DNA of 64,000 bases from Candidatus Pacebacteria bacterium CG_4_9_14_0_2_um_filter_40_15 (GCA_002788675.1 PFRS01000007.1:270-64269), one strand, 5' to 3'; positions 2,124 to 42,253 are shown, counted from the stretch's first letter. The notes: generated by a model not told the origin, from the sequence alone. Numbers and translations: made by a program.

Positions 2124-2283
2124 TGTCGGGGAAACAGGACTCCTCGCTCGCTTCGCTCACTGCGGGATGCTCGTACTGTAGGAGGCTTACGCAATTTATA
2201 ACTCGCATAGCGACCCATAGGTTCAATCCTTTGCTTGCTCCAATACACAAAAAAACCCACCAAAAGGTGGATTTTTTCGTGTG
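2124..2283 (-). repeat. mini-element downstream of tRNA-Pro. Displaced copy of the tRNA-Pro 3' end (2124-2142, 19/19 identical to 2282-2300) is fused to the conserved motif CTCGCTTCGCTCAC (2147-2160, reverse complement of GTGAGCGAAGCGAG)
   Basis: Direct sequence comparison. The duplicated block starts at G57 of the T-loop and runs through the discriminator. The same 14-mer and the same architecture recur after tRNA-Gly. Confidence 0.7.
2250..2278. terminator. bidirectional hairpin plus T/A tracts (cccacc-aaaa-ggtgg-tttttt), terminates tRNA-Pro
   Basis: GC stem CCACC/GGTGG flanked by an A-run and a T-run, immediately 3' of tRNA-Pro on the minus strand. Confidence 0.6.
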
Positions 2284-2357
2284 TCGGGGAAACAGGACTC
2301 GAACCTGCGACCTCACGGTCCCAAACCGCGCACTCTAGCCATCTGAGCTATTCCCCG
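2284..2357 (-). tRNA. tRNA-Pro (anticodon TGG)
   Basis: Reverse complement folds as a cloverleaf. Acceptor stem CGGGGAA/TTCCCCG. D arm GCTC-AGATGGCTA-GAGT. Anticodon stem CGCGG/CCGTG with loop TTTGGGA. T arm GCAGG-TTCGAGT-CCTGT. Discriminator A. No encoded CCA. Confidence 0.85.
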
Positions 2358-2598
2358 AATTGTTATGTAAAGAACAAGATCAAATTATACCGCACTAATG
2401 AGTATTATTCGAGATGGTCTTTTGTACTATGACTCATGGTTGGTATCTTTTCGTAAGATATCTATCAGAGGTCGAGCAGGAATCAAGGCAAGTTTTTGCC
2501 AAAAGGCTTCTTGTTTTTTTTCTTTGTCTCTTCTCTCTTTCCAATCATCAAGATCTTTTTGGGAGATCTCTTGATGAGTTTCTTTTTGAGTCATTGTG

Positions 2599-2682
2599 TG
2601 CCGCGGGTGGGAATCGAACCCACACGATATTGCTATCACGAGATTTTAAGTCTCGCGCGTCTACCAATTCCGCCACCACGGC
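2599..2682 (-). tRNA. tRNA-Leu (anticodon TAA), long variable arm
   Basis: Reverse complement: acceptor GCCGTGG/CCGCGGC, anticodon stem CGAGA/TCTCG with loop CTTAAAA, long variable arm, T arm GTGGG-TTCGATT-CCCAC, discriminator A. No encoded CCA. Confidence 0.85.
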
Positions 2683-2764
2683 TTGTTCACTTTAGAACAC
2701 TCACGATTATATCACCACAATTATCTTACTTGAAGTACAAGGAGAAGTTCTTTAGAATGAAACT

Positions 2765-5700
2765 ATGACTATGGATTCACGGCCTACGGCCGTACATACG
2801 ATCGAAAATACTCCGCCTCCTCCTCAAGAGCAGGAACATCCATTTATGGTTGGTGAACAACTTGGTGTTCTAAAGATTAATAATCCAGGTAGTGTTTTTG
2901 ATGGAATGGAGATTCCAATTCCAAGACAAAGACGAGAATTAAGTCGCAATGTGTCTGAAGCTTTGCTTTCTGAAATGCAGAATCCCGTACAACAACTCTT
3001 GCAGTTAGTGGAGAATGTAACCAATCAATCATTTGCACAAGGAGCTAAAACATATCAAGGTGAAAACAGAAAAATTCTCATACATAAGATACTTGAAAAC
3101 TTGTCTGATTCTCCTAAGTATAGAAAGCTACTCGAAAAATTTGCTAGTGGGAGCAGTGAATTTTCAAAAATAGTTATAAATGCGACTGTGTATATGTTAA
3201 GTAATACCAATTACTTGAAGGCAATTATTGGATTTGTTGTTGATGGTTGGGATAGTTCAAGAGCACCTCGAAGAATTCAAGACTTTGAGGATGCTATGCG
3301 CGAGGCAAGTTGGCAGGTGCAACAAGAACGCGATCCTGGTTTTTACCAGCAAACGCAAGCAGGACACTTTTCAGTTCAAACAGTACTTAATCCAGCAGTG
3401 GCATATGATCTTTTTTCATTTTATCAACTCACACAGCAGACAGAAACAGTGGGCTTAGTGCCCACTGAATCATTTGAATCTGATCATCCAAAGCAAATCC
3501 GACCAGGACAAGATGAAGAAGAGTATAAAAAAGAACAACTCGCACATTTAGAAAGATTGGAGGCTGAAAAGGCTGCTCGAGATGCTGCTGCTGCGCGTCC
3601 ACTTGCTCGTATAAAAAAGAAGCTGCAAGAGGCTGCTAATACATTTTCAGACCAGCAAAAGGAATTTCCTGAAGAGCCAGTGAGACAGGTTACATCTGAA
3701 GAATTTGAAGCAAAAGCTGCTGAGCGTCAACTTTTTGCAAATACCGAAAAACTTAATCGACTGGAAAAGGATTTTAGATCTGCAGTAGTGGGAGTAACCA
3801 TTGCAAATAAGATTGAGCTAATGCGAGAAGCAGCAGAGTTTCTCGAAACAGATTACGGTGAAGAAAAAGCAACACTCACAAGATATGAGCGACTTACAAA
3901 AAAATTAAAAGCAAAGTTATCTGGTAGACATTTTAGTCCTGAGTCAGCCGAAGCATTTTTACGATTACAAGAAGTGTATAAGTTTGATCCAAATAGTGAG
4001 GCTGTTAACCGATTACTTGATCAAGAATTTGGTTTAGATCAGGCTGAGATTACTGCATTAAATAGCACCAGAAATGGACGTAAAGATCTTGAAAAATTAA
4101 TCAGACGTGCTCGTGCAATAGTTACGCATGGTTTTACTAGAGATACCCAACATGGGATTGCTGAAGTTACTTTTGGTAAGGAACCAAGGCATTTTGTTAT
4201 ACTTGTTCATGGAGCACCTTACAAAATTGAATATTACAATAAGGATGGCTTTATAACTCAAGAATTGTTGATCAGAGCAGTACAAAATCTCGAATATACA
4301 CATGCTGATCAAAGTAAAGATCCAGAAGTACTCAAACAGAGACAAGTCATAGCTTCAATCTGGACTGAGTTAAGTTACAATCCTAAAAAAAATGAAATAG
4401 TAACTGATCCTCTTTTGTTAGACCAATTTATCAAAAAGTTTTTGAGGTCTGATTTAAAAAATACATCACAAGTTACACTGCAAATTGCTGATTCAATCAG
4501 GGCATTAATAAGTGCAGACTTTTCTGTCTCTGTGGGGGCAGATGAAGTTCCAGCTTTTGGAGCTGACGATCAAGCTGGGGAAATGCTCTCGTTGGTATTT
4601 GGAGGACAGCACATTGATATTTCAGATAATATTGGGGCGTTTTGTCAGCAATTTCTTGACTCTGATGAGATGAATAATAAACGAACACTATCAAACATTG
4701 CAAATTTTTTTGAAAAAGATAGTTGGGCGACACAATTACTTATAAAGATTAATTCACAATTTGATCATGGTTTGACTGATGGACGGGAAGCTCAAGAGAC
4801 TAATGCGGAATTATTACTGAGGTTATCTCAATATTTGGTAAGTGTGGGCAATGTTGCAGCAAGTAGAAAGATACTTCCAGAAGCACTACTCGCACAAAGT
4901 CTGAGTCTTGGTGTAATTGATGGTGAAATGGTGTTTGATGATGAAAAGGTTATTGCCGAGAATGTACACGAGTACAGTTATTCACTTCCGGACTTGCCCG
5001 AAGCCCTCGTTAACTCACCCAAAGCGTTAACTAAGGAGCTTGATAGAAGTGTCACTATTACTATGGAGAATGAGCTTAGAGATCGACTTGAAGCTATTGA
5101 TAGCATGAGTCTTAGGGAACTTTTTGACGGGGCAGGTACAATGGTTGATCGATTTGTAAATGTAACTGTTGATGTTCAGATGAATGCTATTAGAGAACCT
5201 GCATGGCAAGAACACTTGCGCTTGAATCCAGATATTCCATCCAAGAGTCCCAGGAAAATACAAGTTATCAAAGATACATTTTATATAGATTTGGAGACTG
5301 GTCTTCGAGACACAGTTAAAATTTTTCTAAATGGGGATCATGAGCTCATGAAGGAAGTACAAGAAAAATTACAGCTCAAAAAATATGATTTCTCAGCTGC
5401 GGCTCGGCTGTACGGGGTTGCTGATGTTTCAAAAATTTCTGCTGTTGAATATAGTCGATTTATGGCAGATCGTACTACATTGGCAGGAGAAAGCGATACA
5501 TTTAACATCCTTGCTCAATATGAACAAATTAATACTGTTGCACGAAAAGTAAAACGTAGGCTAACTGCAATTCAAAAACAAAAAAAAGAGGCTGAACATA
5601 CAAGAGATACTATTAGTGATGTTCTTGATATCAAGACTGTTTATGATGAGACTTACGCACGACTTAATTCAACTGAAGAGCAAGATTTATTACAGTTGTT

Positions 5701-6898
5701 AGATGAAATGAATGCGGCCCTTAAGCAAATTAATTTGGTGCTGACTCGATGTCTTTATGATAAAGAATTGTTTGCTACCGATGCCTCTGGGTCAGTGAGA
5801 GAAAGTGATCCGATTATAGCTCAAGTCCACAACCTACAATTAAACAGAATTAGTTCGGTCACCGCAATTCATTATGCTCAACTTATGGCGGACATGATGA
5901 ACATGATGAGTGATGATATGAGGCCTGCATTGCGTAGATTACCCACATCACGTAACATTGCTGAAATTCCTACGAGTAGGCTCGATTTTCACACTATGAC
6001 TGGGTATGCAGAAACAATGTTAAGTATGCAAAGCTTTGCAGAGATTTGGGCTGACACAAATAAAGATAGAACGGATGGGAAAGCACAAGTGCTTGAAGCA
6101 TTTAAGGATATAATTCAAGATTTTGTTGTAAATTATAGTATGCAGTTTCAAATAGGTGTTGATCAGGCACGAAAGCAAGTCAGTGATACGTCAGTATTAT
6201 CTGCTGGTACTAACAGATTTACTCAGTGGTTACTGGAAGTTTCTTTGCAATACACGGGTCTCACCGGGGTACTGGCTCAACAGCGCACGGGCAATATGAT
6301 TTCAGTGGTAGATTCAAATCCCGGTGTTGCTGGAGGGTATAGTTTACTGAGTCTGAGTGAAGGAGAGATGAGTGAAGCCGAGCATCTTACTGCGGTTTTA
6401 AATAGCAGCCATGGTCAAGATTCATTTCATACAGCTGGATCAAAAAATGTTGGTACTGCTATGGGAGTTACTCGAGTACACGATGGGGAAAATTCTCATT
6501 ATGCCTTTAAAGGTCGTAAGGCTGTCACTGATCAGCATCTAGATCAAATTGCCATGGCCATGCTGGGAGTAGAACGAAATGTAGCACGAGAATTAGTTGA
6601 AGGTATAAAACCTGGGTATTACTTTAATCAGCTGACTGTGCCGCAGCGCCGAGAGGCTCTCCATACAGCTAAGAGTGAGCTGGTTGAACAAACTAAATCT
6701 ATGTATTACTGGTACTTCTTTATTAACGTTATTACTAAAATGGATATGAATCAGGTGGGAACAAGGTATGATGAATGGGTGGTATCGGAAAGTTCACTCT
6801 CATTTATTAAATATGTTATGGAACAGGAACTGCCAAAGTATAACTTGAGTGAAGAGGCTATGGATTTCTATCAAAATGGTCCTAGATTGAACGCCTAG
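2765..6898 (+). CDS. giant orphan protein (1377 aa). No signal peptide, no P-loop, coiled-coil rich, no recognisable domain
   Basis: Single 4.1-kb ORF with no sizeable competing ORFs. Flanked by tRNA-Leu upstream and tRNA-Gly 30 bp downstream. Confidence 0.7.
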   Translation: MTMDSRPTAVHTIENTPPPPQEQEHPFMVGEQLGVLKINNPGSVFDGMEIPIPRQRRELSRNVSEALLSEMQNPVQQLLQLVENVTNQSFAQGAKTYQGENRKILIHKILENLSDSPKYRKLLEKFASGSSEFSKIVINATVYMLSNTNYLKAIIGFVVDGWDSSRAPRRIQDFEDAMREASWQVQQERDPGFYQQTQAGHFSVQTVLNPAVAYDLFSFYQLTQQTETVGLVPTESFESDHPKQIRPGQDEEEYKKEQLAHLERLEAEKAARDAAAARPLARIKKKLQEAANTFSDQQKEFPEEPVRQVTSEEFEAKAAERQLFANTEKLNRLEKDFRSAVVGVTIANKIELMREAAEFLETDYGEEKATLTRYERLTKKLKAKLSGRHFSPESAEAFLRLQEVYKFDPNSEAVNRLLDQEFGLDQAEITALNSTRNGRKDLEKLIRRARAIVTHGFTRDTQHGIAEVTFGKEPRHFVILVHGAPYKIEYYNKDGFITQELLIRAVQNLEYTHADQSKDPEVLKQRQVIASIWTELSYNPKKNEIVTDPLLLDQFIKKFLRSDLKNTSQVTLQIADSIRALISADFSVSVGADEVPAFGADDQAGEMLSLVFGGQHIDISDNIGAFCQQFLDSDEMNNKRTLSNIANFFEKDSWATQLLIKINSQFDHGLTDGREAQETNAELLLRLSQYLVSVGNVAASRKILPEALLAQSLSLGVIDGEMVFDDEKVIAENVHEYSYSLPDLPEALVNSPKALTKELDRSVTITMENELRDRLEAIDSMSLRELFDGAGTMVDRFVNVTVDVQMNAIREPAWQEHLRLNPDIPSKSPRKIQVIKDTFYIDLETGLRDTVKIFLNGDHELMKEVQEKLQLKKYDFSAAARLYGVADVSKISAVEYSRFMADRTTLAGESDTFNILAQYEQINTVARKVKRRLTAIQKQKKEAEHTRDTISDVLDIKTVYDETYARLNSTEEQDLLQLLDEMNAALKQINLVLTRCLYDKELFATDASGSVRESDPIIAQVHNLQLNRISSVTAIHYAQLMADMMNMMSDDMRPALRRLPTSRNIAEIPTSRLDFHTMTGYAETMLSMQSFAEIWADTNKDRTDGKAQVLEAFKDIIQDFVVNYSMQFQIGVDQARKQVSDTSVLSAGTNRFTQWLLEVSLQYTGLTGVLAQQRTGNMISVVDSNPGVAGGYSLLSLSEGEMSEAEHLTAVLNSSHGQDSFHTAGSKNVGTAMGVTRVHDGENSHYAFKGRKAVTDQHLDQIAMAMLGVERNVARELVEGIKPGYYFNQLTVPQRREALHTAKSELVEQTKSMYYWYFFINVITKMDMNQVGTRYDEWVVSESSLSFIKYVMEQELPKYNLSEEAMDFYQNGPRLNA

Positions 6899-6927: not shown

Positions 6928-6999
6928 GCGGGTATAGTACAACGGCTAGTATGACTGCCTTCCAAGCAGTAGATGGCGGTTCGATTCCGCTTACCCGCT
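6928..6999 (+). tRNA. tRNA-Gly (anticodon TCC)
   Basis: Acceptor GCGGGTA/TACCCGC. D stem GTAC/GTAT. Anticodon stem ACTGC/GCAGT with loop CTTCCAA. T arm GGCGG-TTCGATT-CCGC. Discriminator T. Confidence 0.85.
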
Positions 7000-7201
7000 C
7001 AGAAATGAAAATAGGCCGTCAGGCCTCTTTTTATTTCTGAATGGTGTAGATACGGAACTAATCTAGCGAGATGAATATCGAGCTAAGTTCTGACGGAGAG
7101 TGCGATAGCACCCGCCTAATGCATGTGAGCGAAGCGAGTCGTAGATTCCGCTTACCCGCTCAGAAAATAAAAAAGGCCGTGAGGCCTGTTTTTATTTTAG
7201 A
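7000..7201 (+). repeat. mini-element downstream of tRNA-Gly. About 103 bp of unique sequence (7041-7143) ends in GTGAGCGAAGCGAG (7125-7138). It is followed by a ~58-bp imperfect direct repeat (7144-7201) of the tRNA-Gly 3' end plus its terminator (6983-7040)
   Basis: 23/23 identity between 6983-7005 and 7144-7166. The second hairpin ggccgtgaggcc + tttttatttt is a near copy of the first with compensatory changes. Confidence 0.75.
7011..7040 (+). terminator. rho-independent terminator after tRNA-Gly (aggccgtcaggcct + ctttttatttc)
   Basis: Perfect GC hairpin followed by a T-run. Confidence 0.65.
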
Positions 7202-7914
7202 AGTTCTAACACTTTTTCTTCTGGCAGCTCAATGTATTTTTCACCATCTAAGTCACCAATATCAAATGGTCCCATTTTTGTGCGAACAAGTTCAATAGTG
7301 TCGTATCCTACTCTCTCAGTCATACGGCGAATTTGTCTGTTTCTGCCTTCTGTAATGGTTATTTCAATCCAGGTTTGGTTTTCTTCATGTGACAAAACAG
7401 TAACCTCTGCTGGTTTTGTGTAGCCATCTTTGAGTTTGACGCCTCTTCTGAGGTGATCAAGCGCTAAATTGGTGGGTTTACTACTGAGAAGAACTTCATA
7501 GGTTTTTGCTATTTCGTATCTTGGGTGAGTAAGTGTGTGAGCTAGCTCTCCATTATTGGTAACTAGCATAAGGCCTTCACTCTCTTGGTCAAGTCGTCCA
7601 ACTGGATAAACGCGTTCAGTTATTTTTGGTATGAGTTCAAGAACAGTTTTTCTGCCAACTTCATCTGAAGTAGTTGAAATATATCCCACTGGTTTATTTA
7701 TCAGAAAATAACGATGTTTTTGAGGTGCTGAGATAGGTTTTCCGTCGATTGAAACTTTGTCTTTGTGAGGGTTTACGCGTTGACCAATTTTTGCAACAGA
7801 ACCATTTACTGTTACGACTCCAGTTTCAATAAGAGCCTCGGATTTTCTTCGTGAAGCAATGCCAGCTCTAGCAAGGAAGAGTTGCAGCTTGATTGTTGAT
7901 GTATTGCTCGTCAT
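7192..7914 (-). CDS. 16S/23S rRNA pseudouridine synthase, RsuA/RluB family (S4 domain + PseudoU_synth_2)
   Basis: N-terminal S4-like RNA-binding region plus the catalytic motif region YPVGRLDQESEGLMLVTNNGELAH, typical of the RluB/RsuA family. Confidence 0.85.
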   Translation of the reverse strand: MTSNTSTIKLQLFLARAGIASRRKSEALIETGVVTVNGSVAKIGQRVNPHKDKVSIDGKPISAPQKHRYFLINKPVGYISTTSDEVGRKTVLELIPKITERVYPVGRLDQESEGLMLVTNNGELAHTLTHPRYEIAKTYEVLLSSKPTNLALDHLRRGVKLKDGYTKPAEVTVLSHEENQTWIEITITEGRNRQIRRMTERVGYDTIELVRTKMGPFDIGDLDGEKYIELPEEKVLELLK

Positions 7915-7930
7915 AATATGTTCCTGTTGT

Positions 7931-8608
7931 ATGAAAAAAACACTTATTATCTCTGATCTTCACTTAAATAATAGCTTCGATAGAGAATTATCGCATTATA
8001 TCGCGAATTTAGTCAGATCTGTTGACCAAGTTATAATCAATGGGGACTTTTGGGATCACTATATTTGTAGTTTTGATGAGTTTGTTGCATCTGAATGGAA
8101 TCAGCTCTTTCCTATTCTTAGAGAAAAAAATGCCATATTTATATATGGTAATCATGATAAGGCTGCCTTTTCAGATGAACGTGTAACCTTCTTTAGTGCA
8201 AAGCAAGTTGTTGAATACACACTTCACTCGGGTGATAAACGTTTCATTATTGAGCATGGAAATCGAATCGCACCTGAAATGGATGATAAACATCCAACAC
8301 TTGCAAATCTATTTGATAGATTTTATCCTCGATTTTATTTTTACATGATGAAGGATCTGTGGGCAACACGATTTATTCATAGAAAATTTATGTATCCAAA
8401 GCAAGAAAAACTTGATGTCATCTTACAGAGATATTTCTCTCGACTAGATGATGCCTCTGTAGATGGCTACATTTGTGGTCACTCACATATATTTGCTGCA
8501 TCACCGACTTTTAAATATTATAATTCTGGTTACTTTTTTGCAGGTGAAGCGCACTATCTTATTATTGAAGATGGTACTATCTCAAGACATTCTGAGTTTT
8601 ATTGGTAG
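7931..8608 (+). CDS. calcineurin-like metallophosphoesterase (YfcE/LpxH-like)
   Basis: Motifs ISDLHL, INGDFWD and YGNHD. The ORF track starts at 7859 and overlaps the upstream gene. The start is more likely the ATG at 7931 (MKKTLIISDLHL). Confidence 0.7.
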   Translation: MKKTLIISDLHLNNSFDRELSHYIANLVRSVDQVIINGDFWDHYICSFDEFVASEWNQLFPILREKNAIFIYGNHDKAAFSDERVTFFSAKQVVEYTLHSGDKRFIIEHGNRIAPEMDDKHPTLANLFDRFYPRFYFYMMKDLWATRFIHRKFMYPKQEKLDVILQRYFSRLDDASVDGYICGHSHIFAASPTFKYYNSGYFFAGEAHYLIIEDGTISRHSEFYW

Positions 8609-13059: not shown

Positions 13060-13150
13060 ATATGAGCTTAATGAGTATGTTGAACACTGTAATTTCTATT
13101 TGATGCAATGTGAAAGAAATAACTCTCCGGCTTTTGGCCGGAGAGCGTGT

Positions 13151-13477
13151 TTATTTTGAAACAACAAAAGTGCCATCACTGGCTTGCCAGTGATGAGAGT
13201 AGATATCTGTGCACAACTCATTATTAAAGCGTGCATCAGATACAAAGTCTTGCATCATCCACCAATAATCGGTGGTGCATGGAAACTTCATTTTTTTATG
13301 ATTCCCTGGTTGTTGGCCAAGTTCATCAAAAGTGCAATGACGGATATACCGCCGCATGCTTTTTTTGAACTGCCGAACAAGATTACCTTTGCCTGCATAG
13401 CCACGGTACACAGCTTTTTTGTAACTGTTACCGCTCCGACGCCCGGTTTTTTTTGCTACTTTCCCATCTTTTGCCAT
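13151..13477 (-). CDS. hypothetical basic protein (108 aa)
   Basis: GGAGA Shine-Dalgarno 10 nt upstream of the ATG. A terminator hairpin (ctctccggc...gccggagag) lies downstream at about 13120-13145. Preferred over the overlapping plus-strand ORF 13184..13534. Confidence 0.45.
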   Translation of the reverse strand: MAKDGKVAKKTGRRSGNSYKKAVYRGYAGKGNLVRQFKKSMRRYIRHCTFDELGQQPGNHKKMKFPCTTDYWWMMQDFVSDARFNNELCTDIYSHHWQASDGTFVVSK

Positions 13478-13641
13478 TTATTAATGTTCTCCAAATTACG
13501 GTTAGCAGTTATTTTTGAAAAAAACTGCCAATGATAATGGTAGATGAGTGTATTATATCGTGAAAAATCAAAAAGTAAAATACTATGAGATGTATATAGT
13601 TGAGTAAATAAGATTGAGCTTGTTGTGCTCTACTTAACTAT

Positions 13642-13938
13642 TTATTCAGTAAATGCTGTAATCCAAGCAGTAATTTCACGATTGAATGCTCTTGGCATGG
13701 TATAAGCTGAAAGCATAAGGTATTGATCTGTACCTTTGTGATGAATGTAGAGATTATTACGATCCATTCGCAGATCAAGTTGATCGGCTAATTCTGGTTC
13801 CATTTCATAATCATCTTTAGCACCGTTATAGTCGAATGCTGCATCAAAGAGTGCTTTGAGTTCATTTTGACGAATGCCAGCTTGAATTTCAGCAGGGCTA
13901 GGAATATCATCTGGTGTTGGTTTTTTTCGTTCAGACAT
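13642..13938 (-). CDS. hypothetical protein (98 aa)
   Basis: ORF only. Confidence 0.35.
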   Translation of the reverse strand: MSERKKPTPDDIPSPAEIQAGIRQNELKALFDAAFDYNGAKDDYEMEPELADQLDLRMDRNNLYIHHKGTDQYLMLSAYTMPRAFNREITAWITAFTE

Positions 13939-13996
13939 GTGCCTATTATACCACTCTGAAGCGTTTCAAGAGTTTTTCTTAAAGAAAGCAATAATT

Positions 13997-14515
13997 TTAG
14001 TTTTTTACTACACCCCACTGAGCATCTGAGTATTTAGGATTATTTTGTATGTTTTTTTCAATTAGGTTACCGATTACTTTCATATCGTCATCAGTCAGTG
14101 GCTTGAAACCATCGTAAAAACCTGTAGATCTGTCAGGTAACGAGACTGCTTCAGGAAGTGTTTGTGGGCCATTTGAAAAGACTCGACCGAAGATATGGAT
14201 ATGGAGTGTTGGTCGCTCATTTCGCTTAAACGCCCAATTTCCTAGGTCTTCCAGGTTTACCCATGCTACTTTTATCCCCTGCACGTTTAATCCTGCCATC
14301 ATAGATTCCCTTACCACCATTTCTAGCCTGGCAAGTTCAATCATCTCGAGAGGTGTGAGGTCATTTATACAGCTAATTGTGTGGTCTTTTGGGAAAATAC
14401 GTATGTGGCCACCTTCTTCTCGCGATACGAAAGGATGAGGTGATCTTTCTACGGTAAAAGATTTTGATGCAAAGATTAGGTTTGTTTGTTCAATTGTCAT
14501 AGAGTTCTCTTCCAT
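13997..14515 (-). CDS. HIT-like superfamily protein (variant motif LHIHIFGR)
   Basis: Histidine-triad-like H-phi-H-phi motif near the C-terminal third, with the third His replaced by Phe. Otherwise unassigned. Confidence 0.4.
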   Translation of the reverse strand: MEENSMTIEQTNLIFASKSFTVERSPHPFVSREEGGHIRIFPKDHTISCINDLTPLEMIELARLEMVVRESMMAGLNVQGIKVAWVNLEDLGNWAFKRNERPTLHIHIFGRVFSNGPQTLPEAVSLPDRSTGFYDGFKPLTDDDMKVIGNLIEKNIQNNPKYSDAQWGVVKN

Positions 14516-14561
14516 TTTTTTGTTTACTTTAACTCTCTCTCCCTACAGCCATATGTTCAGG

Positions 14562-15440
14562 TTAGAGGAATAAAAGTATTAATCCAGCTGTTACTCCTAC
14601 TATTCCAATCATCTTTTTAGTCGTTAATTCGTCTTTAAAAAAGAAGGAAGACATGATTGTTAATAGTGAAATTGATGCGGCATTTGTGGCATTAACATAG
14701 CCAACATTTGGAGCCAAATTAAATCCAACTTGCATAAAGTAAGCATAGCTCGAGCCAAATAAGCCAATAAAAATGAGTGTTACGAGTTGTGTTTTATTAA
14801 TGTGAAAAACTGGAATTTTCTTAACGAGTATTTCTCCGAGTATTAAGACAGTTACAACCAGCATTGATAAAATAAGCCGAGTAAGAATAGGCACACCCAT
14901 ATTGAGTAGATATTTTGAGCTTAGTGCCAGAAATCCCCAGCAAAAAAATGCACCCATCGTGTAAGGGAACCATACTGAATTTGAAGTAGCTTTATTTTTT
15001 TCTTTATCGATCGTAATGAAAGCTGAAAATAATACGATAGCTAGAATGGCAATTGCGGACTTAAATGTTAGTGGAGCAAAAAAAATGAATATCGAAGCTA
15101 TTGCGGTAAAAACCACATAACTTTTTGAGATAATTAAACTATATCCCGGGTTTGGAGAATTCTCCATTCCTTTTAAGGAAAAAACATTTCCAAAATAACT
15201 AAAGAAAATACCTGAAACTAAAATGAGTATTAACTCGACTGGTGTAAGCGCATAACTAGTTGGGGTTTTAATCGTTACAGCTATGTACACAAGTACTGGT
15301 ATTAGAAACATAGCCAAGTTATTTAGTTGTTGAGGAGTTTTGAGTGCATTGCTTTTTCGCACGCAAAGATACAGTGCAACCGAGCTGAAAAACATTAGTA
15401 GGCTGGCAATAATCCAATTCATATATATAGTATAGTTCAA
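14562..15440 (-). CDS. DMT/EamA-like permease (10 TM)
   Basis: 292 aa, two 5-TM halves; typical drug/metabolite transporter topology. Confidence 0.5.
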   Translation of the reverse strand: MNYTIYMNWIIASLLMFFSSVALYLCVRKSNALKTPQQLNNLAMFLIPVLVYIAVTIKTPTSYALTPVELILILVSGIFFSYFGNVFSLKGMENSPNPGYSLIISKSYVVFTAIASIFIFFAPLTFKSAIAILAIVLFSAFITIDKEKNKATSNSVWFPYTMGAFFCWGFLALSSKYLLNMGVPILTRLILSMLVVTVLILGEILVKKIPVFHINKTQLVTLIFIGLFGSSYAYFMQVGFNLAPNVGYVNATNAASISLLTIMSSFFFKDELTTKKMIGIVGVTAGLILLFL

Positions 15441-15498
15441 GTGAAGAAATAATTTGGATTTAAACTTGAGTTGGTGATGTTCAGAGTAAAAAGATATG

Positions 15499-15573
15499 GG
15501 TGGCTAACCGGGTTCGAACCGGCGACCTTCGGTACCACAAACCGACGCTCTAACCAACTGAGCTATAGCCACC
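15499..15573 (-). tRNA. tRNA-His (anticodon GTG) with encoded G-1
   Basis: Reverse complement: extra 5' G pairs with discriminator C. Acceptor GTGGCTA/TAGCCAC. Anticodon stem TCGGT/ACCGA with loop TTGTGGT. T arm GCCGG-TTCGAAC-CCGGT. Confidence 0.8.
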
Positions 15574-15704
15574 ATGCATAGGTACAAAAAGTGCACCAAT
15601 GTAAAATAAAGAACGAAGCATATTATAGCTTGAATTCAGAGTTTAGCCAAGTCACTAACAGGACCCTGGGCAATTATTTTTGATCTGATACAATCAGTTA
15701 CCAA

Positions 15705-17081
15705 ATGGGACTTTTTTTATTTTTAGTTTCACTCTTTTCAGCTGTTGGGTTTATGCTTACGTTGTTAGGATTTTGGGGCTGGTTGCCCAGCTTTTTTTTG
15801 TACCTACTCTTTAGTGTCTTTCTTGTTGTCCCAGTTAGTATTCTCTATCGTCTCTTTCTTTTTATTCCTCAATTATCAAAAAATGAGAGAGTATTTCTAT
15901 TTGTTATACTTACTATTTGGTTTGGACATTTTATACAAGTCCTTGTGCCTGAAACAGGGTTTGATGCGCTCTGGTATCACTTGCCAGTAGTTGAACATAT
16001 TTTATCTATTGGTAAAATTACGTATCTCCCTGAGTTATATCAAACCATGAATCCCCTCTTTGCGGATATGTATTTTTTAGTGGGCTACTTTGTTGCTGGA
16101 TCAGTAGGCGCAAAGCTAGTTGCATATCTCTTTGGAATGATGTTGGCTGCAACTACCTATTTTGTAGCGCGTTTCTTTTTACGTAGAGATTTGTCATTAC
16201 TTGTTGTAGCAACTGTATCACTCTTTCAGGTGGTGGCTTGGCAATCTAGTAGTTTTTATGTTGACGTGGCTAAAGCATTTTTTGAGCTAGCTGGTCTTCT
16301 AGCTATATTGAATGTTTCAAAGAAATCAACACGGTTTTTATTATTAGCAGCCCTGCTCTTTTCAGCAAGTTTAGCAACAAAAATGTTTTCACTGTTTTTA
16401 GTGCCACTTTTCTTGGGAATTCTTTGGAGCAGTTGGAAAGAAAGAAAGTTGAAAGTGAGTTTCTTTGTTGTTTTAGTTGTTGTTCTTTTTGTATGTGCGC
16501 TACCCTATTATCTAGGAGCATGGAGGTATACGGGTAATCCTGTATTTTCTTTAGTGGTTCCACTGGCTATCTTGGGTGAAATTGGTGGGTCTGGTTCAGT
16601 TGTGGGGTATGTGCTAAGAAGAATAAAGTTAAGCCCGTTACTATTTGTTACATTACTCTTTGCTAGAGATTATGTTCCGCCACTTACTCTTTTGGCAGTT
16701 ATCCCAATAGCTAAACGGTTCAAAGATATTTCTCGTGATTATACATTAAAGTTACTTGGAGTATTTTCGTTTTATCAGCTTGGAATTTGGTGGTTTGTGC
16801 CACCATTTTCAACTAGGTATGCGTTGTCTGGGTTTATTACACTCTTTTTGCTTGGAGTAATCGTTGTTGATCGGTACTTTGTACATACAAAAAGGCAACG
16901 ATTTGTGTTTATGGTTATGCTTTGCCTACAGATAGCAGTCTTGTCGATTCCCAGAGTTATTGTGGCCGGAAGGAGTCTAACCTATTTACTTACAGCACAA
17001 ACTCAACGTGAGTATCTACAGCAGTTCTATGATGGAACGATTGACGATAAAATTAATGATTGGTACTATCCAAAAAAATAA
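15705..17081 (+). CDS. polytopic membrane protein, GT-C-like (ArnT/PMT-type glycosyltransferase fold suspected)
   Basis: 458 aa with more than 10 TM segments. Its arrangement resembles undecaprenyl/dolichyl-phosphate-dependent glycosyltransferases, but there is no decisive motif. Confidence 0.45.
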   Translation: MGLFLFLVSLFSAVGFMLTLLGFWGWLPSFFLYLLFSVFLVVPVSILYRLFLFIPQLSKNERVFLFVILTIWFGHFIQVLVPETGFDALWYHLPVVEHILSIGKITYLPELYQTMNPLFADMYFLVGYFVAGSVGAKLVAYLFGMMLAATTYFVARFFLRRDLSLLVVATVSLFQVVAWQSSSFYVDVAKAFFELAGLLAILNVSKKSTRFLLLAALLFSASLATKMFSLFLVPLFLGILWSSWKERKLKVSFFVVLVVVLFVCALPYYLGAWRYTGNPVFSLVVPLAILGEIGGSGSVVGYVLRRIKLSPLLFVTLLFARDYVPPLTLLAVIPIAKRFKDISRDYTLKLLGVFSFYQLGIWWFVPPFSTRYALSGFITLFLLGVIVVDRYFVHTKRQRFVFMVMLCLQIAVLSIPRVIVAGRSLTYLLTAQTQREYLQQFYDGTIDDKINDWYYPKK

Positions 17082-30141: not shown

Positions 30142-32244
30142 TTAGTCGTTTTTTGAAAAGACAGAAATCAAAAACTCAAAGTGCTCATCAGCAGTTTTAC
30201 CAATAAGTTGCAAACCCTCTTCAATATCTTCTCTACTTACATTGGCAGCAAACGCTTTAGTTTTAAGTTTTTTCTTGATTGATTTTGATTTCATACCCTC
30301 AAGACCAGTTGGGCGAAGTAGTGAAACGGCATTAATGAAACCAGAAATTTCGTCACAGGCAAAGAGGTAGCGGTCCAATGTTGTGATTGGATCACGTCCA
30401 GTTCTAGATGGAGCATGTGCCGCAATAGCATCAAGCATGGCTTGTGGGTACGCTGTTAAGATTTCATTGATGGCTTTATTTGGATGTTCGTCGGGGTACA
30501 TTTCCCAGTCTAGATCGTGGAGCAAACCAGTTTGGTACCAGAGTTCTTCATCCTCACCAAGTTCTTTTGCGTAAGCAGTCATAGCTTGAGCGACCATGCG
30601 TGAGTGGTTGCGTAGTGCTTCATCTGAAATATACTTTTCCAAAAGTGCTGTTGCAGCTTCTCTAGAGGGCATTTCTACAGAATCTGCTTTTTTCTCTGTT
30701 GAAGCATTTTTACCTGTGATATGCAGTGGAACAAGTGGGCGTAGCGTTGGAAAGGCAATCACCTCTTTAATACTCCAAGTGTTAGTAAGGAACATGACTA
30801 AACGGTCAATTCCCATTCCAATTCCACCAAGTGGTGGCATACCATGTTCCATAGCTTCAAGGAAGTCTTCATCAAGTGGATGAGCCTCGGTGTCACCATG
30901 AAGCATATTTGCTTGTTCATTTTCCCAGATGTTTCGTTGATCGACTGCGTCGACAATCTCACTCCAACCATCGGCAAGCTCTTTCCCTCCTATATAGGCT
31001 TCAAAGCGTTCTGCAAATTCTGGTTGGGTGCGATGTTGTTTTGCTAATGGAGAAATGTCACGTGGGTAGTCGACAATCCAAATTGGTGCGATTAAATGAG
31101 GAGTGACTAGTTCATCAAAGAGCTCAAATAATGCTTTACCTCTGGTGAACTCGCTTTTTAGTTCAATTCTGTGGGTTTTCATGAGTGCTTTCACTTCTTC
31201 GTCTGAAAGAGAGTCAAAGTCGATATTTGCGTGTTGTTTAAGTGCTTCATCCATTCGTACTCGAGGCCAGTCACCAGCAATATCAATGATTTTTTCACCA
31301 ACGGTAATCTCATGGTTACCGTAGAGTTTAAAGGTGAGGTGTTTAACCAGAGCTTCTGCTACATTCATCATGCGAGTGTAGTCTGCATAGGTCTCGTACC
31401 ATTCGATCATAGTGAACTCAGGTTGATGGGTTTGATCAATACCCTCATTGCGGAAGTTGCGGGCAATCTCAAAGACTCTATCGTAACCACCTACAATTAG
31501 CCGTTTTAAGTAGAGTTCTGGAGCGATGCGTAGGTAGAAATCACTATCAAGTGCATCCATGTGAGTGGTAAATGGAGTTGCATTTGTGCCGCCATATAAA
31601 GGTTGTAAGATTGGCGTTTCAACTTCAATAAAATCATGTTGATCTTGAAGAAACCGACGGATCTCTTTTTCAATTAACCAGCGAGCATCAAGAATTCTTT
31701 TTGTGTCTGGATTAATGAGCATGTCGACGTATCGTTTTCTAAAACGAACTTCTTTATTATCTGCTGCATTAAAGGCTGTTGGAATTGGTCGAAGTGCTTT
31801 AGAAAGCATCTGAAACTCAGTTGCTAAGATGGTTAGTTCTCCAGTTTTTGTGGTCATTACGGTACCAGACACTCCTAGATAATCACCTCGGTCGACTAAT
31901 GTTTTTAGCCACTCGAATGCTTTGGAATCAACTTCAGCTTCTCGTACCATTACTTGGATATTGGTTGTAGAGTCTTGTAGATCAAGAAACACAACTTTTC
32001 CATGTGCTCTGATGGACATGATGCGACCAGCAGTTTGAACTGATTGATCCATCATTTCTCGAACTTGAGCAATAGTAAACTTCTTATCAAAGAAATGAGG
32101 ATGCACAGTAATACCTTGTGCTTCTAATTGAGCTCTTTTATCTTTTTTTGCTTGAATTGTTTCGTCCATTCGCGACATGCCGGCGGTCCTTTTTGTGCTT
32201 TGTACTGCTTTATTTTGATTAATTTGTGCGTCTTGATTATACAT
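30142..32244 (-). CDS. lysS: lysyl-tRNA synthetase (class II) fused to a ~190-aa C-terminal HD-domain-like extension
   Basis: LysRS OB-fold plus the catalytic motifs FRNEGIDQTHQPEFTMIEWY and GGIGMGIDRLVMFL. The C-terminal tail contains H...LLHDLDW...H, typical of HD phosphohydrolases. Confidence 0.85.
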   Translation of the reverse strand: MYNQDAQINQNKAVQSTKRTAGMSRMDETIQAKKDKRAQLEAQGITVHPHFFDKKFTIAQVREMMDQSVQTAGRIMSIRAHGKVVFLDLQDSTTNIQVMVREAEVDSKAFEWLKTLVDRGDYLGVSGTVMTTKTGELTILATEFQMLSKALRPIPTAFNAADNKEVRFRKRYVDMLINPDTKRILDARWLIEKEIRRFLQDQHDFIEVETPILQPLYGGTNATPFTTHMDALDSDFYLRIAPELYLKRLIVGGYDRVFEIARNFRNEGIDQTHQPEFTMIEWYETYADYTRMMNVAEALVKHLTFKLYGNHEITVGEKIIDIAGDWPRVRMDEALKQHANIDFDSLSDEEVKALMKTHRIELKSEFTRGKALFELFDELVTPHLIAPIWIVDYPRDISPLAKQHRTQPEFAERFEAYIGGKELADGWSEIVDAVDQRNIWENEQANMLHGDTEAHPLDEDFLEAMEHGMPPLGGIGMGIDRLVMFLTNTWSIKEVIAFPTLRPLVPLHITGKNASTEKKADSVEMPSREAATALLEKYISDEALRNHSRMVAQAMTAYAKELGEDEELWYQTGLLHDLDWEMYPDEHPNKAINEILTAYPQAMLDAIAAHAPSRTGRDPITTLDRYLFACDEISGFINAVSLLRPTGLEGMKSKSIKKKLKTKAFAANVSREDIEEGLQLIGKTADEHFEFLISVFSKND

Positions 32245-40336: not shown

Positions 40337-42253
40337 CTACTCTGATAGCACTATTACAAAGTCATAGGCGCTTGCTGTGTCTTCTTGTTCTTTATTTTCT
40401 AAATCTAATTCAAATGTTAAATTTGTTGCTTTTTCGATGTATTCTTTCAGTCCAGGCATTTCTTCATCAACTAAAATAAAGTTGCCTTCTTCATACTCAC
40501 CTTTAGCATTTGCCGCATCGACATCATCAAAGTCGGCGTCGGTTAAGTCTGTTTTGATAGTGCCTGCATACCCGGCTTTTGTTGTAGCATTTACGATGAG
40601 TACAGAGTATCCCGTTGTTGGGTCAAACTTAACAATTTCTTGTATTTCTGCTGATTCTGTAGCCTCTGGTTCCGGTGACTGAGTTTCAACAACAACTGGA
40701 GTAGCCTCATTTTGAGTATCCTGTTGGGTTACTTTTAGAAGTCCTAATCCAACTCCAACACCTACAGCAACAGTTGCGAAAAATACGGCGAGAGTTATGA
40801 AAACCATTTTCATCATAGTACCAACTCCAGAACTATTTTTTATAACATTTGATGTTTTTTTTGAATTTTTTGCTGTTTCCGATTTTGTAGTGTCGCCACC
40901 GTCTATTGAAAACTTGCGTAAATCAATTGAATCTGCATCGTAAAGTGAACTATCTGTTGAGAGTTCTTTTTCTTCAGCTGTTGTTTCTATTTCATCAGAC
41001 ATTTCTGTGTCCTCCTCTGGTTCAGTCACTTTAGAAGTACTTTTAGATTCTTCAACGTGGTTGGTATCAGGTTCTTTGGTTTCAAGCGTATCACTGTTAC
41101 TATCTATTTTACTATTCTCATCTGATGTTTCCGGTTCCTCAGGTTTGACTTCTACTGAAGCTAGTTCATCTTTTGTATCTGTCTGGTTCTGTTCTTCAAT
41201 GGATATATTAGATGTATCTACTGAGAGGTCTAAGTGTTTAATCTGACTCAGAGCTGCGGTTGTTGTGGCTGAGGCATCAGGAAGAGTTGGAGTAGGAAGA
41301 GTATCAGTTGTATTCGTATCTTTTGTTTCTACTTCTTCAGAATCCTCTTCTGTGTCTCTTTCCTGGGCTCCTTGTGTTAATGCTTCGATTGTTTTTTCGT
41401 CCTCAGCGGTTGCTTTTTCAATTTCAAATGAAGGTGCCAGATAATCTGGAATTGAGAGAGTCTTCATGCCAGACTCAATAATATATTTAATGTAAGATGG
41501 CATCTTTGCATCTTCTTCTTTAAATGATGCCAGCTGTTGTATAGGAAGTATCGATTTGAGTTTATCTGTTAATTCTTCTTCTACAATTGCGTTTGAAAGC
41601 AAGTAGATGGTTTGAATGCTTGGTTCTCCACCTTTGAGTGTTTTAATTGTCTCAATTATATTTGAAATTTCATCAAGCTCCGCAACAGTCGTTTGGTCAA
41701 TACCAATGTAGTGAAGTGATGAATATAATTTACTACCGACTTGAAGAATACTAATACTTGGTTCAAGAGAGATGATAGATTTAGCACTCCAACTTAACGC
41801 AGTGACACCTTCAAAACTGACGTCATGATTTTTAGCGCTGACTCTAATTGGAGCTAAGAGACTTTTTTCAATCGCACTAATCTGCACTTTTGATTCGCCT
41901 TTGAACTGGTTGAGTACGAAAGTATTTACATAGTGAGAGTCTGTTGTTAATCCAAGTGATGGAAGCAATTTTTCTTTGAGATGTACTATTACAGCTTTTT
42001 CATCAGTTTCTTTTACAGAGACGATTGTGTCAGTAAAAAGAAAATCTGGAAGAATGAGTGATGTGAAGTTTTCTCCCTTAAATTTACTAAAGAGTTTATC
42101 TACATTTTCAGGCAAAAATTCTGTATCATCTAGAAATTCTCCATTTACTTGACGGAATGACTGCACGGCAAAGGTGAATTCTTTTTTTGTCGGAAGTAAT
42201 TCTGCAAAGTAAGTGACGTCTGGAAGTATATAAAGTAGTTTATTGCTTGGCAT
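40337..42253 (-). CDS. hypothetical bitopic membrane protein (638 aa): N-terminal cytoplasmic domain, long acidic/Thr-rich linker, one TM, C-terminal LytR_C-like extracellular domain
   Basis: TM at MMKMVFITLAVFFATVAVGVGVGLGLL. The C-terminal ~110 aa resemble the LytR/CpsA/Psr C-terminal domain (VLIVNATTKAGYAGT...). First gene upstream of the atp operon. Confidence 0.45.
   Translation of the reverse strand: MPSNKLLYILPDVTYFAELLPTKKEFTFAVQSFRQVNGEFLDDTEFLPENVDKLFSKFKGENFTSLILPDFLFTDTIVSVKETDEKAVIVHLKEKLLPSLGLTTDSHYVNTFVLNQFKGESKVQISAIEKSLLAPIRVSAKNHDVSFEGVTALSWSAKSIISLEPSISILQVGSKLYSSLHYIGIDQTTVAELDEISNIIETIKTLKGGEPSIQTIYLLSNAIVEEELTDKLKSILPIQQLASFKEEDAKMPSYIKYIIESGMKTLSIPDYLAPSFEIEKATAEDEKTIEALTQGAQERDTEEDSEEVETKDTNTTDTLPTPTLPDASATTTAALSQIKHLDLSVDTSNISIEEQNQTDTKDELASVEVKPEEPETSDENSKIDSNSDTLETKEPDTNHVEESKSTSKVTEPEEDTEMSDEIETTAEEKELSTDSSLYDADSIDLRKFSIDGGDTTKSETAKNSKKTSNVIKNSSGVGTMMKMVFITLAVFFATVAVGVGVGLGLLKVTQQDTQNEATPVVVETQSPEPEATESAEIQEIVKFDPTTGYSVLIVNATTKAGYAGTIKTDLTDADFDDVDAANAKGEYEEGNFILVDEEMPGLKEYIEKATNLTFELDLENKEQEDTASAYDFVIVLSE

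Follow-up and report, generated by a model that had tools for sequence, protein, structure and literature searches.

The DNA analyzed here is a stretch of 64,000 nucleotides (nt) from Candidatus Pacebacteria bacterium CG_4_9_14_0_2_um_filter_40_15 (GCA_002788675.1, PFRS01000007.1:270-64269), referred to at its full length as the window, and our subject is a single large gene near its start that encodes a protein of 1377 amino acids (aa). With genes for SecA, F-type ATP synthase subunits, pyruvate kinase, several aminoacyl-tRNA synthetases and EF-P, the window represents the ordinary chromosome of an ultra-small bacterium of the candidate phyla radiation (CPR). A previous reading of the same DNA, made without database searches (the sequence-only reading), had described a giant orphan open reading frame (ORF) bounded by three tRNA genes; we recovered the ORF exactly where it had been placed, and ARAGORN and Rfam returned the same calls for all three tRNAs (Table 1). 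The neighborhood consists of tRNAs, rluB, a metallophosphatase gene, an epmA-like gene, efp and transporters, and not of phage genes. No integrase or recombinase domain was found in the ORFs within ~5 kb on either side, and no phage or defense genes adjoin the 1377-aa gene, the flanking orphans being without a PHROGs or PADLOC match. The GC content of the gene (0.38–0.40) equals the local background (window mean ~0.39). An identical protein is encoded on 14 independent contigs, the longest of which spans 1,189,027 bp, and the gene accounts for ~0.35% of a genome of roughly 1.19 Mb. The copies at NCBI are named 'hypothetical protein [Candidatus Pacebacteria bacterium]' (PIZ78482.1, PJA69332.1 and PJC41350.1), another carrier lineage is labelled Candidatus Woesebacteria, and a search of the literature library for accessions and locus tags of the protein found no paper.

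Next, we compared the protein with curated families and large sequence collections. Single-sequence hmmscan runs against Pfam, NCBIfam, PHROGs and PADLOC gave no significant match, with DUF3053 as the best Pfam match (17.7 bits at a gathering cut-off of 23.9), the others far lower and none of them common to the orthologues; likewise, no Pfam or NCBIfam match pointed to an SMC or AAA protein. Across the members of the family, PHROGs gave nothing below E = 0.003 and no phage family common to more than one member, and phmmer against the PDB sequences gave no significant match. A word-indexed search of 5.8 billion proteins returned three proteins only, namely that of the window lineage, one at 58% and one at 52% identity, and the same type of search with an N-terminal profile yielded nothing beyond fragments of the family. 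An exhaustive HMMER search, in which a profile of residues 333–1377 was run against 1.84 billion representatives of 50%-identity clusters, brought up a single full-length relative together with three family fragments, and nothing outside the family. No family member was detected in IMG/VR and the JGI metagenomes (pattern searches with two pattern sets, and tblastn), and there was no match among 50,697 phage records (tblastn) or in the plasmid collection, while the GTDB genomes contributed one locus, 99.9% identical to the Woesebacteria lineage. No relative of the protein could be detected among the curated families, the solved structures or the phage, plasmid and metagenome collections that were searched. 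The orphan status assigned by the sequence-only reading withstood four hidden Markov model libraries, PDB profiles, the exhaustive HMMER search, the N-terminal profile search and the scans of phages, plasmids, viral contigs and metagenomes, and the homology searches brought up none of the housekeeping, SMC-like or tail-fiber-like relatives that had been named as evidence to the contrary.

In all carriers, the gene order is tRNA-Pro(-), tRNA-Leu(-), the 1377-aa gene or its homologue (+), tRNA-Gly(+), rluB(-), metallophosphatase, the epmA-like tRNA-synt_2 gene and efp. Because this order is kept, RluB was taken as an anchor for the inspection of progressively more distant genomes. At 72% RluB identity, lineage L004 carries a full-length homologue of 1328–1330 aa (38–40% identity to the window protein), and at 69%, lineage L007 carries one of 1340 aa (37–38% identity), both in the same tRNA frame. 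Lineage L005 (68%), a sister lineage, has the same frame, filled with a 71-aa ORF and an unrelated 1165-aa orphan in the opposite orientation, and neither the frame nor a large orphan near the anchor block was found in L008 (66%), L011 (62%) or L009 and L010 (both 61%). The gene is thus present where RluB identity is at least 69% and absent at 68, 66, 62 and 61%. Altogether, five lineages encode full-length homologues with 36–59% identity, all in the same tRNA frame, which answers the earlier suggestion to look for conservation across related genomes. The large searches had missed the full-length homologues of L004 and L007 because their database clusters (P0005/P0127 and P0129/P0128) are represented by short fragments: a 399-aa fragment (P0005) is the cluster representative of L004 and the sole form returned by the large protein searches, and of L007 only the 55-aa fragment P0006 surfaced, despite a full-length representative (P0129) of its 90% cluster. 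As a practical lesson, synteny-anchored retrieval recovers homologues that are hidden behind fragment cluster representatives. One carrier record, L003 (JACKFX010000001.1, 262 kb), is titled 'Pseudomonadales bacterium isolate HK-STAS-PATE-16' and yet contains the CPR locus; since its protein is identical in 1283/1284 positions to that of a Candidatus Woesebacteria metagenome-assembled genome (MAG), this organism label looks wrong.

Among the five carriers, pairwise distances of the large protein vary closely with those of its translation-related neighbors RluB+EpmA+EF-P (correlation r=0.91), exceeding them 2.34-fold. Because the distances track those of the neighbors, and the tRNA frame and neighboring genes are the same in all carriers, the comparison argues strongly for vertical descent within a narrow Microgenomates clade of the CPR, with the gene fixed between tRNA-Leu/tRNA-Pro and tRNA-Gly, and against a mobile island. 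The simplest reading would be one acquisition or origin at the base of the clade, followed by vertical descent with fast but constrained evolution. The proposal of a tRNA-associated island is therefore at odds with the shared frame and rluB-metallophosphatase-epmA-efp block in five lineages, the correlated distances, the native GC content and the lack of an adjacent integrase, phage or defense gene, even though the replacement in L005 and an att-like duplication of the tRNA-Gly 3' end speak in its favor. Between orthologues, synonymous sites are saturated (proportion of synonymous differences, pS, 0.74–0.78), whereas the nonsynonymous proportion (pN) reaches only 0.26–0.36, and this constraint spans the whole gene except the linkers at aa 233–332 and 626–660. 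Such a pattern is that of a real protein-coding gene under purifying selection and lies far beyond what a chance ORF would be expected to give. Population variants within the 90% cluster differ by 0–3 amino acids and contain no hypervariable region. It is very likely that the gene encodes a real, vertically inherited, clade-restricted soluble protein.

The content of the tRNA slot outside the carrier lineages was inspected as well. In L005, the occupant lies at 13145-16858 of CAZKVV010000008.1 (GCA_964556485.1), with the 71-aa ORF directly abutting the 1165-aa orphan. This orphan shows no BLASTP match to the 1377-aa family (hhalign probability 0.5%) and no Pfam, PADLOC or PHROGs match, and its stop codon stands directly before the TATAAT of tRNA-Leu, mirroring the position of the window gene against the tRNA-Gly promoter. 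Genes beyond tRNA-Pro differ between lineages. In the window, a 59-nt direct repeat (88% identity) occurs at 6983–7041 and 7144–7202, the second copy 161 nt downstream; it comprises the last 19 nt of tRNA-Gly(tcc) and the terminator hairpin and is absent from L001 and L002. The sequence between the copies contains no tRNA or Rfam family and folds moderately well (z=-2.3). The repeat resembles either an att-type scar left behind by an integrative element that was lost or a tandem copy of the tRNA that has decayed. Given the unrelated occupant in L005 and the att-like duplication, the slot has a history of turnover. Further tRNA-adjacent ORFs without a Pfam match are present in the window, one of 458 aa between tRNA-His and tRNA-Arg (15705–17081) and one of 638 aa adjoining tRNA-Lys (40337–42253), and the tRNA-His/tRNA-Arg interval of L009 (1257–5760) holds orphans of 215 and 733 aa adjoining a large serine recombinase. 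Tentatively, tRNA-bounded gaps may collect lineage-specific genes in these genomes more generally.

The 1377-aa protein is acidic (200 D+E versus 155 K+R) and contains only 2 Cys. Its N-terminus is polar and Pro-rich, no transmembrane-like segment or hydrophobic N-terminus was found (maximal 19-residue Kyte-Doolittle mean 1.08), and a motif scan of the whole protein revealed no Walker A ([AG]xxxxGK[ST]), HExxH, CxxC or LPXTG motif. Hydropathy and motif inspection thus bore out the earlier statements that the protein lacks a signal peptide and a nucleotide-binding motif. Neither self-BLAST nor hhalign of eight segments showed internal repeats. According to the alignment of the five full-length lineages, from which all conservation counts were taken, 281 positions are invariant; His is enriched 2.3-fold among them, with 13 of the 28 His residues invariant, and invariant D/E/H/R/K residues cluster at 448–526, 585–618, 667–675 and 1216–1260. 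The conserved N-terminal region gave no relatives in the N-terminal profile search or the PDB profile search. It is followed by a charged linker that is mostly deleted in the 1284-aa orthologue and has no invariant residue at aa 241–300. The first part of the conserved core carries the motifs AFLRLQEV, HGFxR...H...E, HFxxxVHGxPYxxEYYN, ADFSVSxGAxEVPxFGxDDxxGE and GGxHIDxS. Beyond a second variable stretch, the C-terminal two-thirds contain the motif N..(F/Y)DH...DGREA..TN at 663–680, a least conserved, predicted helical middle at aa 781–1020, a second invariant His-rich cluster (H1216, H1222, H1239, H1258 and D1260) and a strongly conserved C-terminus (...EA.D.YKNG). The protein probably comprises a series of mostly helical domains without repeats, connected by two variable linkers.

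Table 1 Features of the 1377-aa gene and its tRNA frame in the window
Feature	Coordinates	Strand	Basis and remarks
Protein-coding gene, 1377 aa + stop, ATG start	2765..6898	+	ORF call; relatives detected in one Microgenomates ('Pacebacteria/Woesebacteria') clade only
Conserved N-terminal region, aa 25-232, predicted mostly helical	2837..3460	+	Invariant E31, R56, R102, D160, R170, R179, W183 among others
Variable charged linker, E/K/A/Q-rich, aa 233-332	3461..3760	+	Alignments of orthologues
Conserved core part 1, aa 333-625	3761..4639	+	Highest density of invariant His/Asp/Glu/Arg
Variable insert, aa 626-660	4640..4744	+	Orthologue alignments; missing from 1284-aa orthologue
Conserved C-terminal two-thirds, aa 661-1377	4745..6895	+	Orthologue alignments
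Promoter-like element, TTGAAG-17 nt-TAGAAT	2730..2758	+	Comparative, all five lineages
11-bp palindrome TACTTGAAGTA, overlapping the -35 of the 1377-aa gene	2727..2737		Conserved in 4/5 lineages, one mismatch in L002
tRNA-Leu -10, TATAAT	2706-2711	-	Conserved; shares the 82-nt intergenic region with the promoter of the 1377-aa gene
tRNA-Pro(tgg), outer member of the conserved tRNA frame	2283..2357	-	ARAGORN + Rfam
tRNA-Leu(taa), divergent from the 1377-aa gene	2598..2682	-	ARAGORN + Rfam
TATAAT, own -10 of tRNA-Gly, 8 nt after the stop codon	6906..6911	+	Conserved in five lineages
tRNA-Gly(tcc), closing the frame, same strand as the 1377-aa gene, 29 nt after its stop codon	6928..7000	+	ARAGORN + Rfam
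Terminator-like hairpin + T-run after tRNA-Gly	7013..7036	+	First terminator-like site downstream of the 1377-aa gene

In addition, we modeled parts of the protein. AlphaFold2 (AF2) reached a predicted local distance difference test score (pLDDT) of 40.5 and a predicted template modeling score (pTM) of 0.25 for residues 333–1377 with a 5-row alignment, and 44.2 and 0.26 for residues 395–760 with the five-lineage alignment. The best Foldseek match of the latter model to the PDB (E=2, TM-score at most 0.14) was discarded, and neither model can be taken as evidence for or against any fold. The low-confidence secondary structure comprises ~60% helix and 3% strand, with a longest helix of 39 residues (915–953), and a crude heptad scan indicated short stretches only, near 927–997. 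Of the helical or coiled-coil architecture proposed in the sequence-only reading, the helical character is therefore matched by the predicted secondary structure and the long coiled coils are not; the modest length of the longest predicted helix argues against an SMC-like rod or a fiber.

Searches of the PDB with profiles of the whole protein, its N-terminal part, its core and its C-terminal part returned no match better than E 0.1, and the search with aa 956–1377 was empty. The sub-threshold matches included an RPN11 linker, the plant UGT 9pfa (E=0.1), the SH3b domain 2kt8 (E=0.9) and CinA/PncC, and Carn_acyltransf was matched below threshold at E=0.01–0.2. The CinA/PncC amidohydrolase match, a tentative lead, covers 38–40 residues only (E=0.2–2), and Pfam CinA (PF02464) was not recovered from this segment of the five lineages (E up to 10). 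PADLOC PbeC was rejected, as it matches only the family member P0002 (E=7e-5, residues 865–977, in a helical stretch of low conservation), and PDC-M30B matches only L004 (E=0.003, within the helical middle region), with no match by PADLOC-DB v2 in the window protein, P0003 or L007. A Fic motif, HPFx(D/E)GNGR, at residues 25–33 was dismissed as His25 is Asn in L007, and a 2-oxoglutarate-dependent (2OG) oxygenase HxD...H arrangement as the distance from HxD to His is only 18 aa in P0003. Resemblances noted by eye to the RNA polymerase motif 'NADFDGD' ('SADFSVS'/'GADDQAGEM'), to palm A/C motifs, to the nucleotidyltransferase (NTase) pattern G[GS]x9-13DxD and to the ADP-ribosyltransferase (ART) R-S-E triad were unfit in spacing or invariance.

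Upstream of the gene, conservation extends over the 82 nt between tRNA-Leu and the ATG, and the distance from the end of the -10 hexamer to the ATG is exactly 6 nt in 5/5 lineages, provided that the start of L004 is moved 6 nt upstream (MSMDRR). An AAGGAG 20 nt upstream lacks conservation and lies too far off for a Shine-Dalgarno role. Based on this fixed 6-nt gap and the poor fit of AAGGAG, a leaderless mRNA starting at or adjoining A2765 appears more likely than not, and the gene is probably transcribed from its own housekeeping-type promoter. The palindrome TACTTGAAGTA could serve as a shared operator or as a bidirectional promoter element. Transcripts reading through tRNA-Gly would be expected to end at the hairpin that follows it, since this is the first terminator-like site downstream.

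Two further observations concern other genes of the window. The metallophosphatase ORF (7859–8608, +), listed with 249 aa, overlaps the 5' end of rluB (7192–7914, -) by 56 nt; its true start probably lies ~25 codons downstream, considering that the orthologues have 224–231 aa. At 30142–32244 (-), a 700-aa class II aminoacyl-tRNA synthetase (OB anticodon domain and tRNA-synt_2 core) carries an HD phosphohydrolase domain in its C-terminal part (residues 546–634), which is an unusual fusion.

Altogether, the explanation that in our view fits best is a real, vertically inherited and clade-restricted gene for a soluble cytoplasmic protein with an enzyme-like core and a lineage-specific accessory role, to which we assign a probability of about 0.5. 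A housekeeping-type promoter of its own would drive the gene, giving a leaderless mRNA, and the protein would be made in soluble form in the cytoplasm, a location suggested by the lack of an export signal, the acidic composition and the near absence of Cys. Its active center might be formed by the invariant His/Asp/Glu/Arg clusters at aa 448–675, comprising the core motifs listed above from HGFxR to GGxHIDxS together with DH...DGREA..TN, with a second cluster at aa 1216–1260. The product would then be an enzyme-like or metal/ligand-binding protein and not a passive rod or surface fiber. For the enzyme-like or ligand-binding core taken on its own, the pattern of invariant residues is suggestive, and we put it forward tentatively, as somewhat less probable than not. 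Several points weigh against this explanation. Neither the motif scan nor manual inspection recognized a catalytic motif of a known enzyme class, and both AF2 models (pLDDT 40.5 and 44.2) were unusable, so that no pocket or fold backs the enzyme idea. Interfaces with other proteins or with nucleic acids likewise show clusters of conserved polar residues. Both expression and the leaderless start are read from comparative sequence, and the fast evolution and the replacement in the L005 slot would suit a conflict-related role equally well.

According to such a conflict-related explanation, the slot between the tRNAs would serve as a hotspot of accessory genes, and the clade would have kept the protein as a single-gene anti-phage, anti-competitor or toxin-like system. 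This would account for the unrelated 1165-aa orphan in opposite orientation in the sister lineage, the 2.3 times faster evolution relative to the neighbors, the att-like duplication of the tRNA-Gly 3' end with its terminator, the variable genes beyond tRNA-Pro, and the serine recombinase and orphans in the His/Arg tRNA slot of L009. However, strict vertical co-divergence over five lineages is not the patchy distribution such cargo would lead one to expect, the PADLOC matches are inconsistent (PbeC in 1/5 members, PDC-M30B in 1/5, both in a helical stretch of low conservation), no NTPase, nuclease or other effector motif was seen, and the gene has neither an adjacent integrase or phage genes nor a deviant GC content; we therefore regard this explanation as unlikely. 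Many 'orphans' join known folds once structures exist, and the protein could turn out to belong to an established family, such as the polymerases, transferases or hydrolases, from which it has diverged very far. The specific lead here is the CinA/PncC amidohydrolase signature, in which 'IADSIRALISADFSVSVGA..VPAFGADD' aligns with 'MAASIRDIAQADVSIAISGYAGPEGGEDG' in two PDB chains of PncC/CinA; with a core-only profile, the E-value falls from 1.4–2.2 to 0.2–0.4. Yet the E-values never became significant, only two near-identical enterobacterial chains match, Pfam CinA was not recovered from the isolated segment, the other weak matches (SH3b, UGT and Carn_acyltransf) point elsewhere, and beyond the family itself the exhaustive HMMER profile search gave no match, which leaves a diverged member of a known family quite improbable.

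Two structural or surface roles were weighed in the same way. In the attachment organelle of Mycoplasma, the cytoskeletal HMW1/HMW2-type proteins are large and acidic and carry no signal, and a cytoplasmic scaffold with a role like theirs would by analogy suit the lack of an export signal, the acidic and ~60% helical character, the lineage specificity, the apparently constitutive promoter, the charged variable linker and the Pro-rich N-terminus. With a longest predicted helix of 39 residues, no long heptad-repeat regions, conservation residing in His/Asp/Glu/Arg-rich motifs instead of heptad patterns and no sequence similarity found to any such protein, this analogy appears very unlikely to hold. 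The sequence-only reading had named host-interaction or effector functions as candidates, which would here mean an exported or surface-exposed effector by which an episymbiont interacts with its host. The protein is indeed large, lineage-specific and fast-evolving in a reduced genome, and an episymbiotic lifestyle is widely inferred for CPR bacteria (for example PMC13059738). Against this stand the absence of a signal peptide, a transmembrane helix, LPXTG or another anchor motif, the acidic and Cys-poor composition, the lack of repeats and of adhesin-like beta-rich domains, and population variants that are nearly invariant, unlike the diversifying repeat gene of a Gracilibacterium (PMC6851277), and an effector seems to us just as remote as a scaffold. 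A more far-reaching speculation, which we consider rather unlikely, is that the protein founds a new fold or enzyme family and that the gap from tRNA-Leu/Pro to tRNA-Gly acts as a previously undescribed 'cargo slot' in Microgenomates, where giant lineage-specific genes are installed, long kept and occasionally swapped for unrelated ones of similar kind. If this were true, the slot could let reduced-genome episymbionts acquire and test large functions for interaction with hosts or phages.

Compared with known systems, the 1377-aa protein shares with the Gracilibacterium gene that both are large CPR proteins without known function, the latter being thought important for interactions; that gene contains PTD repeats and is hypervariable within its population (PMC6851277), whereas the 1377-aa protein has no repeats and differs by 0–3 residues among population variants. 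It differs from SMC-like ATPases in lacking Walker A and, in the low-confidence model, coiled-coil arms of several hundred residues; from phage structural proteins in having no PHROGs, phage-genome or IMG/VR match and no phage neighborhood; and from Sec/Tat-exported or wall-anchored proteins in having no signal, transmembrane helix or sortase motif by hydropathy and motifs. With the CinA/PncC amidohydrolases (PDB 5vu3 and 6l19), it shares a non-significant helix-strand-loop signature of 38–40 residues (E 0.2–2), but the rest of the ~160-aa CinA domain remains unaligned and Pfam CinA gives no match. The locus resembles tRNA-targeted integrative islands in its tRNA-bounded gene, the att-like 59-nt duplication adjoining the frame and the different slot content of a sister lineage. 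In contrast to such islands, the gene has no integrase, its GC content is native and it co-diverges with its neighbors, and the only repeat pair (6983–7041/7144–7202) encloses ~100 nt downstream of tRNA-Gly and not the gene itself.

A large part of bacterial diversity belongs to the CPR, whose genes are to a great extent unassigned, and proteins without an assignment are common in these genomes. Like other 'hypothetical' ORFans of the CPR/Patescibacteria, the 1377-aa protein has been deposited unnamed and without family assignment in several MAGs; it stands apart from them in being unusually long, constrained over its full length, syntenic across five lineages and not folded by AF2 with the available alignment. 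The family is new in the sense that it matches no curated family or system, and not as a demonstrated mechanism. If its His/Asp-rich core proves catalytic, it would represent a new enzyme family, and if the tRNA-bounded slot indeed swaps giant orphans, it would offer a tractable locus for studying the gain of large genes in reduced genomes.

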